A stretch of DNA of 64,000 nucleotides from Raja brachyura (lineage: Eukaryota): contig OY740781.1 of assembly GCA_963514005.1 (NCBI GenBank), positions 172,794,001-172,858,000 of the forward strand, given 5' to 3'. Position numbers and translations under genes: made by a program. Under the pieces are notes generated by a model that saw only the letters and a program-made list of their open reading frames with translations, searched no databases and was not told where the DNA came from. Shown one piece after another: positions 41,718-42,562 of the stretch; within the stretch, counting starts at the first letter, position 1; every line of letters begins with the position of its first letter.

Positions 41718-42562
41718 GGGTGCACAAAAGGCTGGAGAAACTCAGCGGGTGCAACAGCATCTAAGGAGCGAAGGAGATAGGCGACGTTTCGGGTCAAGAC
41801 CCTTCTTCAGACATCTGAAGAAGGGTCTCGACCCGAAACGTCACCTATCTCCTTCGCTCCTTAGATGCTGCTGCACTCGCTGAGTTTCTCCAGCCTTTTG
41901 TGTACCCTCGATTCTCCAGCATCTGCAGTTCCTTCTTTAGGATTTGAGTATAGGAGCAGGGAGGTTCTACTTCAGTTGTATAGGGTCTTGGTGATACCAC
42001 ACCTGGAGTATTCCGTACAGTTCTGGTCTCCAAATCTGAGGAAGGACATTAATGCCATAGAGGGAGTGCAGAGAAGGTTCACCAGACTGATTCCTGGGAT
42101 GTCAGGACTGTCTTATGAACAAAGACTGCATAGACTCGGTTTATACTCTCTAGAATTTAGGAGATTGAGAGGGGATCTTATAGAAACTTACAAAATTCTT
42201 AAGGGGTTGGACAGGCTAGATGCAGGAAGATTGATCCCGATGTTGGGAAGGTCCAGGACAAGGGGTCACAGCTTAAGGATAAGGGGGAAATCCTTTAGGA
42301 CCGAGATGAGAAGGACTTTTTTCACACAGAGAGTGGTGGGTCTCTGGAACTCTCTGCCACAGAGGGTAGTTGAGGCCAGTTCATTGGCTATATTTAAGAG
42401 GGAGTTAGATGTGGCCCTTGTGGCTAAGGGGATCAGAGGGTATGGAGAGAAGGCAGGTACGGGATACTGAGTTGGATGATCAGCCATGATCATATTGAAT
42501 GGCGGTGCAGGCTCGAAGGGCCGAATGGCCTACTCCTGCACCTAATTTCTATGTTTCTAACA
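41718..42562 (+). mobile_element. Palindromic PLE hairpin with two intact hammerhead motifs plus nested CR1 3' end (41939-42559), 15-bp TSD
   Basis: TSD caagttttgaccaca at 41703-41717 and 42563-42577. HHR on - strand at 41783-41810 and on + strand at 41815-41842. CR1 ORF end FEYRSREVLLQLY...AGTGY. Confidence 0.9.

Follow-up and report, generated by a model that had tools for sequence, protein, structure and literature searches.

Hammerhead-bearing hairpins in the Raja brachyura genome as insertion by-products of a Penelope-like element, probably formed by two priming events

In canonical EN+ Penelope-like elements (PLEs) of the Neptune/Nematis type, one ORF encodes an RT plus, C-terminally, a GIY-YIG domain with a CX2-5CxxC linker, the pLTRs stand in partial tandem with a hammerhead in the pLTR, an inverted 5'-truncated copy is attached head-to-head, a tail of 30-40 bp is found at one end, and the TSD is variable, as described in PMC8557442 and PMC3846280. 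The family from Raja brachyura analyzed here is like them in each of these points. It differs in that the two-arm stub is very common, the one-tail rule and the 5' hotspot can be counted, and the ORF is long (1191 aa). The minimal type-I hammerheads of metazoan PLEs, as presented in the main text of PMC4209133, have intact boxes, an extra nucleotide before G10.1, a G10.1-C11.1 pair, a palindromic 15.2-16.2 and no loop 3, and occur mostly as single dispersed motifs; the motif described here is of the same kind. Its helix II has 4 bp compared with 7-8 in S. mansoni, and its helix I has 2 bp compared with 4-5 in S. mansoni and 2 in D. virilis Penelope. The same source reports that minimal PLE hammerheads cut weakly and had already noted opposite-strand hammerhead pairs in S. 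mansoni. No chondrichthyan was seen in its main text. Dimer cleavage of hammerheads was reported by Luense et al., as cited in the review PMC6765202.

Two further systems are relevant. PAc, a Poseidon element of the green anole, has two internal RT start sites that bound the tail, extends both strands in vitro, encodes a predicted dimer and uses uncut RNA as template, with no reads ending at the cut site (PMC11167929). The Raja element resembles PAc in the two sites that bound the tail and in the uncut template. PAc belongs to a different clade, its ORF starts inside the hammerhead, whereas the ATG lies ~160 nt downstream of the hammerhead here, and its cleavage has been demonstrated and needs protein, whereas cleavage of the element here is putative. 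As given in PMC11167929, the PAc account does not derive head-to-head stubs from two-strand priming. Non-LTR retrozymes also carry a type-I hammerhead, are PLE-related and reach 120,000 copies in axolotl (PMC7229834, 10.64898/2026.07.22.740005). In these sources they form head-to-tail tandems and circles and have canonical ribozymes, whereas the stubs here are single or head-to-head with a minimal core. Thus, pLTR hammerheads, opposite-strand pairs, inverted 5' copies and the one-sided tail are already in print (PMC4209133, PMC3846280, PMC8557442). In the literature searched, mostly open-access main texts, no account was found of this Penelope family of Raja brachyura, of a PLE hammerhead overlapped by a start site or of stubs arising from two-strand priming. 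The supplements of PMC4209133 and of 10.64898/2026.07.22.740005, the latter with one chondrichthyan sampled, may list the motif.

The window, i.e. the whole 64-kb stretch of DNA that was analyzed, contains a fold-back in which hammerhead cores lie on both strands. Signed positions take the first C in the CUGAAGA box as +1, and the predicted cut follows +28. The locus has the following features.

41703-41717, plus strand: left TSD, 15 bp, identical to 42563-42577
41718-41812, minus strand: inverted arm without tail, a pLTR piece spanning G(-2) to the first 3' end site (~+94)
41783-41810, minus strand: minimal hammerhead core, helix I of 2 bp
41812-41813, unstranded: head-to-head junction, the left arm's G(-2) and one additional base
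41814-41938, plus strand: direct arm, a pLTR piece that begins at T(-1) and runs through the ~33-nt tail (second 3' end site)
41815-41842, plus strand: minimal hammerhead core, helix I of 1 bp, predicted cut after 41842
41939-42558, plus strand: nested 5'-truncated LINE 3' end inside the tail, foreign to the Penelope element
42559-42562, plus strand: final 4 nt of the tail, split off by the LINE, matching the tail end of the intact element L034
42563-42577, plus strand: right TSD, 15 bp, identical to 41703-41717

As an inverted repeat, the locus consists of arms at 41717-41811 and 41814-41908, 95 nt each and 95% complementary, with 2 nt between them. The first-pass annotation, made from the sequence alone, had placed two intact cores back to back at 41783-41842, and they were found there, reading 41810-41783 on the minus strand and 41815-41842 on the plus strand. 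Both retain the CUGANGA box, GAAA and GUC, a 4-bp helix II with a 4-nt loop and a zero-loop ACGU helix III. The TSD was missed by the automated flank scan because the 620-bp LINE 3' end later entered the tail. This LINE piece is ~90% identical to LINE copies that extend further upstream; related pieces lie at 12301-12905, 46952-47567, 51078-51316 and 57315-57626 of the window.

The same sequence had been said to recur at 12 places in the window. All 12 matched the 41718 locus by blastn or belonged to a match, the place listed as 45767 being the long 5' part of the blastn match at 45983. A profile search of the window returned 29 arms and none in the reversed control. The copies other than the 41718 locus are listed below.

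7235-7443, unstranded: subtype B fold-back whose only tail is on the left arm, TSD 15 bp
8213-8891, plus strand: long copy with short inverted arm, broken GIY-YIG end (8308-8505), 3' UTR, and pLTR with tail
14574-14715, plus strand: subtype A arm, repeated core start, inverted tail, TSD 12 bp
17870-17988, minus strand: single short arm, intact core, TSD looked for and not found
32196-32288, minus strand: single short arm, 15-bp TSD (2 mismatches)
43213-43423, unstranded: fold-back, subtype B, 7-bp TSD at chance level
45767-46078, plus strand: subtype A copy with native 3' UTR, TSD 10 bp
46558-46651, minus strand: single short arm, subtype B, TSD 11 bp
54399-54629, unstranded: subtype B fold-back whose only tail is on the left arm, 15-bp TSD (2 mismatches)
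55824-56253, minus strand: long copy with 3' UTR and last ORF codons (DNA similarity only)
56563-56730, unstranded: direct arm and partial inverted arm bearing the tail

The copies had been described as often near-perfect fold-backs with a TSD of 10-15 bp. Near-complete fold-backs were found at four of the 12 places (7235, 41718, 43219 and 54399), whereas the inverted arm is partial at 14574 and 56563, the long copy at 8213 carries a short inverted arm, and the remaining five are single arms. TSDs were present at eight places (seven from the scan, in addition to that of 41718), but the scan values ranged from 7 to 15 bp, and the 7-bp TSD at 43219 is at chance level (11/300 random pairs). A GIY-YIG C-terminus had been assigned to two copies. 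It was confirmed for 8308-8505, which matched the intact ORF described below by tblastn (E 2e-13) and is broken by an insertion carrying a stop, but not for the copy at 55825, where both tblastn against the intact ORF and Pfam were empty; as DNA, 454 nt of the latter align at 68% with the copy at 8213. A Pfam scan of three short frames of the window gave no match. At 14574-14715, as well as at L004 and L010, the junctions contain the core start or the inverted arm as short repeats, suggesting repeated template jumps before joining. Other features of the window were also noted: inverted-repeat pairs of 34-50 nt, 250-455 nt apart, at 9306-9860, 39894-40212 and 17040-17516 have no relation to the Penelope stubs and are possibly real MITEs; a 301-codon open frame at 11477-12379 is a LINE fragment with a strong RVT_1 match (E 8e-31); and long open frames cluster at 22575-24755 in GC-richer DNA adjoining the N stretch 24361-24588. 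Three frames of this cluster were scanned against Pfam with no match; the region is possibly a promoter or first exon.

The great abundance proposed for the family was borne out. In the genome, 78,124 exact intact cores were counted as the sum over three helix II pairing variants (controls 0), compared with counts by another method of ~9,000 for Xenopus and ~4,000 for coelacanth (PMC4209133). The exact subtype-A core 35-mer alone occurs 30,305 times (control 0). At least two subtypes had been suggested, and 35-mers downstream of the core occur 53,498 times (A) and 20,945 times (B), again with controls of 0; further subtypes beyond A and B exist. A sample of 634 kb was composed of the window, six neighbouring 10-kb stretches and 51 stretches at round coordinates. 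Profile search of this sample gave 240 arms covering 22,189 bases or 3.5% (reversed control 0); the 570 kb beyond the window account for 211 of these arms. Scaled from the sample, the genome would hold, as a rough figure, one million arms. Sequencing runs numbered 24, all in the form of contigs; in four of them, whose kind was guessed, the pLTR is by far the deepest part, but the contigs show no start, strand or level and do not count here as evidence of expression. The repeat family may, as had been proposed, be a chondrichthyan one, which agrees with the general picture of such repeats.

The parent that had been proposed, a PLE, was reached by following long copies upstream to an open RT+GIY-YIG frame. 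The genome search gave 154,329 first-look candidates, of which 99 were scored and four had a 1203-codon open frame. In the intact element L034, a single ORF of 1191 aa with RT and C-terminal GIY-YIG lies between pLTRs; its matches to RVT_1 (E 3e-4) and GIY-YIG (E 1.5e-3) are both weak and below the Pfam cut-offs. The ORF contains the motifs DKG and YIDD, the linker CX4CxxC, and cysteine motifs at residues 1058 and 1098, and its ATG is ~160 nt downstream of the hammerhead. A PDB search with this ORF gave no match. The pLTRs flank the ORF as a partial tandem in L033, L034 and L046, and the hallmarks of EN+ PLEs are present: an inverted 5' copy, a tail at one end and a variable TSD (8-18 bp). A CX2-5CxxC finger in the RT-EN linker together with CCHH cysteines in the EN marks the Neptune and Nematis clades (PMC8557442), and by its cysteine motifs the parent is assigned to the Neptune/Nematis type, one or the other clade. 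That the hairpins derive from a Penelope-like element is beyond reasonable doubt.

The hammerhead was examined in the hairpins and in the parent. The minimal type-I features are present, i.e. the CUGANGA and GAAA boxes, the NUH site and the palindromic helix III, so that the core described in the first-pass annotation is intact in its boxes, helix II and helix III, but the ribozyme is incomplete because helix I is short. It has two contiguous pairs in the intact element and in 134/216 cores, 0-1 in 57 and at least three in 25; among seven window cores, 0-4 contiguous pairs were found. A helix I of 4-6 bp closing the core is lacking in the intact element and in most of the 216 cores. Rfam, which had been proposed as a check, matched none of its hammerhead families to the window at E<=5 and gave only four chance hairpin matches. 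In 120 arms, conservation was 0.89-0.97 in non-CpG core columns, 0.62-0.81 in loop II and 0.53-0.94 in the 15 columns after the cut, and N7 is either A or U. Conservation is not unique to the core, since a block at about +49..56 reaches the same level. Helix II can form, but covariation in it, another proposed check, was not seen either locally or genome-wide. The innermost pair is U-A in 68,137 cores, U.G in 9,833, C-G in 154 and a broken C/A in 1,648. The 154 double changes compare with 238 expected by chance, no compensatory change occurs in 216 local cores, and the sole amplified helix II change keeps the pair. A type-III reading with an upstream cut site was rejected on sequence, as there is no pairing triplet, and a search of 1.5 Mb for other hammerhead families found none beyond variants of the Penelope stub motif.

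Folds were predicted for hairpins and parent; the energies leave out tertiary contacts and protein. Imposing the ribozyme fold on the hairpin carries penalties of 53 and 57 kcal/mol. In a transcript through a hairpin, one core would be paired to its own antisense. Based on these models, the hammerhead is very likely silent in hairpins, being locked in duplex. For the dimer, the hammerhead fold has -6.7 kcal/mol compared with -19.7 kcal/mol for the best co-fold, 13 kcal/mol above it. The natural 5' 160 nt do not fold better than shuffled sequences (z -0.33), and the helix II register of the hammerhead has a probability of <=0.01. With its 2-bp helix I and its overlap with a predicted Inr-MTE-DPE core promoter, the parent's putative ribozyme would cut only with help from a dimer and protein, if at all. 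In the predicted fold of the 5' part (L034:4241-4400), which is not better than shuffles, the first ~12 nt of the RNA pair with the tail end, a pairing that would bring the second RT start site beside the 5' end.

To define the ends of inserted copies, a young set of 106 subtype-A arms was chosen by the 35-mer downstream of the core (first 100 matches and six more) from the first 3.9 Mb of one contig; three segmental duplicates are included. At L214 (G000:C1:3049300-3058600), three tandem segmental duplicates ~3.5 kb apart have the same fold-back and the same flanks. The 5' ends fall at -7..+1 in 56/106 arms, at +2..+42 in 20, at -150..-8 in four and further upstream in 26. Only one arm starts at the predicted cut, and the inserted copies therefore come from uncut RNA, which may nevertheless be compatible with ribozyme cutting if cut RNA is simply not inserted. 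Single copies gave the same picture (34/44 at -7..+1, 1/44 at the cut), and in 48 subtype B arms inspected by eye only, the 5' ends look alike. Copies holding the ORF start make up 30/210, and nine of these begin at -4..+5 and end in the ORF at +343..+747, so they are pieces of the 5' part of an RNA. Many copies that hold the ORF start (L269-L298) end at scattered places in the ORF, three at +1047 and two at +428; priming therefore also takes place away from the two main sites.

The pile-up just before the core is, on balance, best read as a capped start at about -3, because an initiator and an MTE-like motif fit and the fillers end in G. With A(-3) as the start, the Inr matches at 7/7, the MTE at 8/10 at exactly +18..27 (p 0.002-0.004) and the DPE at 4/5, with the motifs spaced canonically; the consensus motifs, taken from PMC1475891, are degenerate and the match is post hoc. 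Among 4,312 element positions this is the only place with a perfect Inr and an MTE of at least 8, and of 63,958 positions in the window five qualify, one being the Penelope element. In the copy at 45767-46078, MTE-like and DPE-like motifs that overlap the core accompany an initiator-like site (A at 45982). Across 11 long copies belonging to mixed subtypes, MTE matches ranged from 4 to 8 of 10 and the Inr was perfect in six, the fit being weaker in older subtypes. At the hotspot, 8/10 of the fillers that separate TSD and element have G as their last base (p=0.001 against 0.28); the set is small and has no control from internal truncations, and filler is missing from most TSD-bearing single copies. 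In L1, an untemplated 5' G has been read as a copy of the cap (PMC9341517).

It is doubtful, though a serious alternative, that the 5' pile-up instead reflects a strong RT stop on read-through RNA or a 3' splice site. A pyrimidine tract and CAG precede the core in all subtypes, and the intron of D. virilis Penelope ends at helix I (PMC4209133). Moreover, no long ORF copy begins at the hotspot: hotspot starts were found in 0/6 copies running at least 1.4 kb into the ORF and in 0/7 near-full elements, of which three read through from upstream (two loci are common to both groups). Splicing, however, would remove the AG or G that most copies retain, the copies have no upstream exon in common, and no splice-type joint was present among the 15 joints listed out of 212. 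An RT stop has no obvious block behind it, as the upstream 80 nt fold weakly (-3.5 kcal/mol), and the G fillers and promoter spacing favour a start site. A spliced form with a longer helix I was also considered, and a search for a common exon before the core found none.

In the 634 kb, 108/240 arms form 54 head-to-head pairs and 6/240 form three tail-to-tail pairs, and stubs of two ~95-130-bp arms account for 54/186 sampled insertions. The 3' ends in the young set lie at +87..97 in 63/106 arms and at +121..132 in 38/106. These two fixed 3' end sites, ~+94 and ~+128, bound the ~33-nt tail, the same pattern as the two RT start sites of PAc (PMC11167929). Exactly one tail was present in 35 of 41 scorable head-to-head pairs (expected 50%, p=2e-6), the other 13 of the 54 pairs having an arm too short to score. 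Over all loci, one tail was found in 87/104 hairpins, two in 12 and none in five.

These end patterns probably reflect two priming events per hairpin, since the first RT start site marks the end of one arm and the ~33-nt tail is on the other. The overall account, which we likewise regard as probable, is that the hairpins are head-to-head pLTR pieces from two primings, in copies running to the capped start of uncut RNA. The protein of the element, as a dimer, would make a staggered cut of 8-18 bp and prime reverse transcription twice, once per cut DNA strand, one strand priming at site 1 and the other at site 2. Both cDNAs would run to the likely capped start of the uncut RNA, ~3 nt before the core, and their two ends would be linked either through the small CAG/CTG quasi-palindrome present where the RNA starts or through end-joining with filler. 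A single stub of ~95-130 bp would result if only one cDNA were kept; priming in the downstream pLTR would give a long copy. The hammerhead core of the hairpin would thereby be inherited from the pLTR of the parent.

A single cDNA whose 3' end folds back and copies itself, followed by trimming of one end by the endonuclease, would also give a one-tail pattern, and we consider this improbable. The commonest junction, with 1,237 copies genome-wide, is exactly what a CAG/CTG fold-back would give, i.e. a cDNA ending at -4 with its last three bases paired with the CAG just upstream, on itself or on a second cDNA. Self-priming has been inferred from palindromic junctions (PMC3846280) and the tail ascribed to EN-mediated resolution (PMC8557442). 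The arms of one hairpin also have rare variants in common, so both come from one source element; their identity to each other (0.90, compared with a mean of 0.85 to other copies) is too high to separate one RNA from two. Of 30 loci with the commonest junction, two duplicates were dropped and one further pair are mutual duplicates; one tail was found in 25 of the remaining 28 and two tails in none. The tail lies on the primary arm in 16/25, as self-copying would allow, but in 9/25 it lies on the other arm, for which a tail-less cDNA would be the snap-back template, and the would-be copy has 33 nt absent from its template. In addition, both tail ends correspond to RT start sites in vitro (PMC11167929), and most junctions have fillers or unequal arms. 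Two priming events are thus the simplest reading, because the tail in these 9/25 hairpins cannot be copied by snap-back and because PAc nicks and extends both strands and is a predicted dimer.

The hairpins had been taken as a ribozyme-bearing family in its own right, and a non-autonomous retrozyme-like or ambisense element that is cut, circularized and re-inserted as a unit would fit the cores on both strands and the high copy number; PLE-derived retrozymes of vertebrates exist (10.64898/2026.07.22.740005). Among 128 hairpin insertions, however, 121 different junctions were found. Each insertion therefore builds its hairpin afresh, and the hairpins neither propagate as units nor represent MITEs. 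Only five tandem neighbours occur among 240 arms, so the head-to-tail tandem arrangement of retrozymes was not found. The single cut-site start among 106 arms indicates uncut templates, the core is buried in duplex, and cores on opposite strands cannot pair up within one transcript. This reading of the hairpins is therefore highly improbable and largely refuted already; the hairpins are almost certainly insertion by-products and not a self-copying unit. A DNA-transposon MITE whose terminal inverted repeats are long, to which the near-perfect inverted arms with a TSD might point, is ruled out for practical purposes by the intact RT+GIY-YIG parent whose pLTR supplies the sequence and by variable TSDs (8-18 bp in 20/44 single copies, compared with 3/220 for control mismatched flanks), and also has unequal ends and the predominance of single arms among insertions against it, in line with the first-pass annotation, which had warned against such a label.

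Excitement over ribozymes on both strands thus does not hold, and the stubs, ~3.5% of the sampled DNA, are to be annotated as Penelope and not as MITEs, microRNA hairpins or active ribozymes. The analysis addresses two open questions, how Penelope elements build inverted ends and what their hammerheads do. A genome with intact young elements and very many countable ends of short insertions is an unusually large natural record of Penelope insertion, and its end counts show uncut templates, copies that stop immediately before the core and, in nearly every hairpin, exactly one tail. As a tentative joint reading, with the balance somewhat against it, the hammerhead at the 5' end of the RNA may double as a Pol II core promoter, with the Inr at -3 and MTE/DPE in the core, the ribozyme with its 2-bp helix I may be unused for templates, and two protein subunits may each prime one tail boundary. 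Two-strand priming and the overlap of ribozyme and promoter become simple assays in the existing in vitro system. If this reading is true, a single two-subunit mechanism would account both for the head-to-head repeats and for the tail on one side in all EN+ PLEs, and it would be recorded in roughly a million stubs in this genome.
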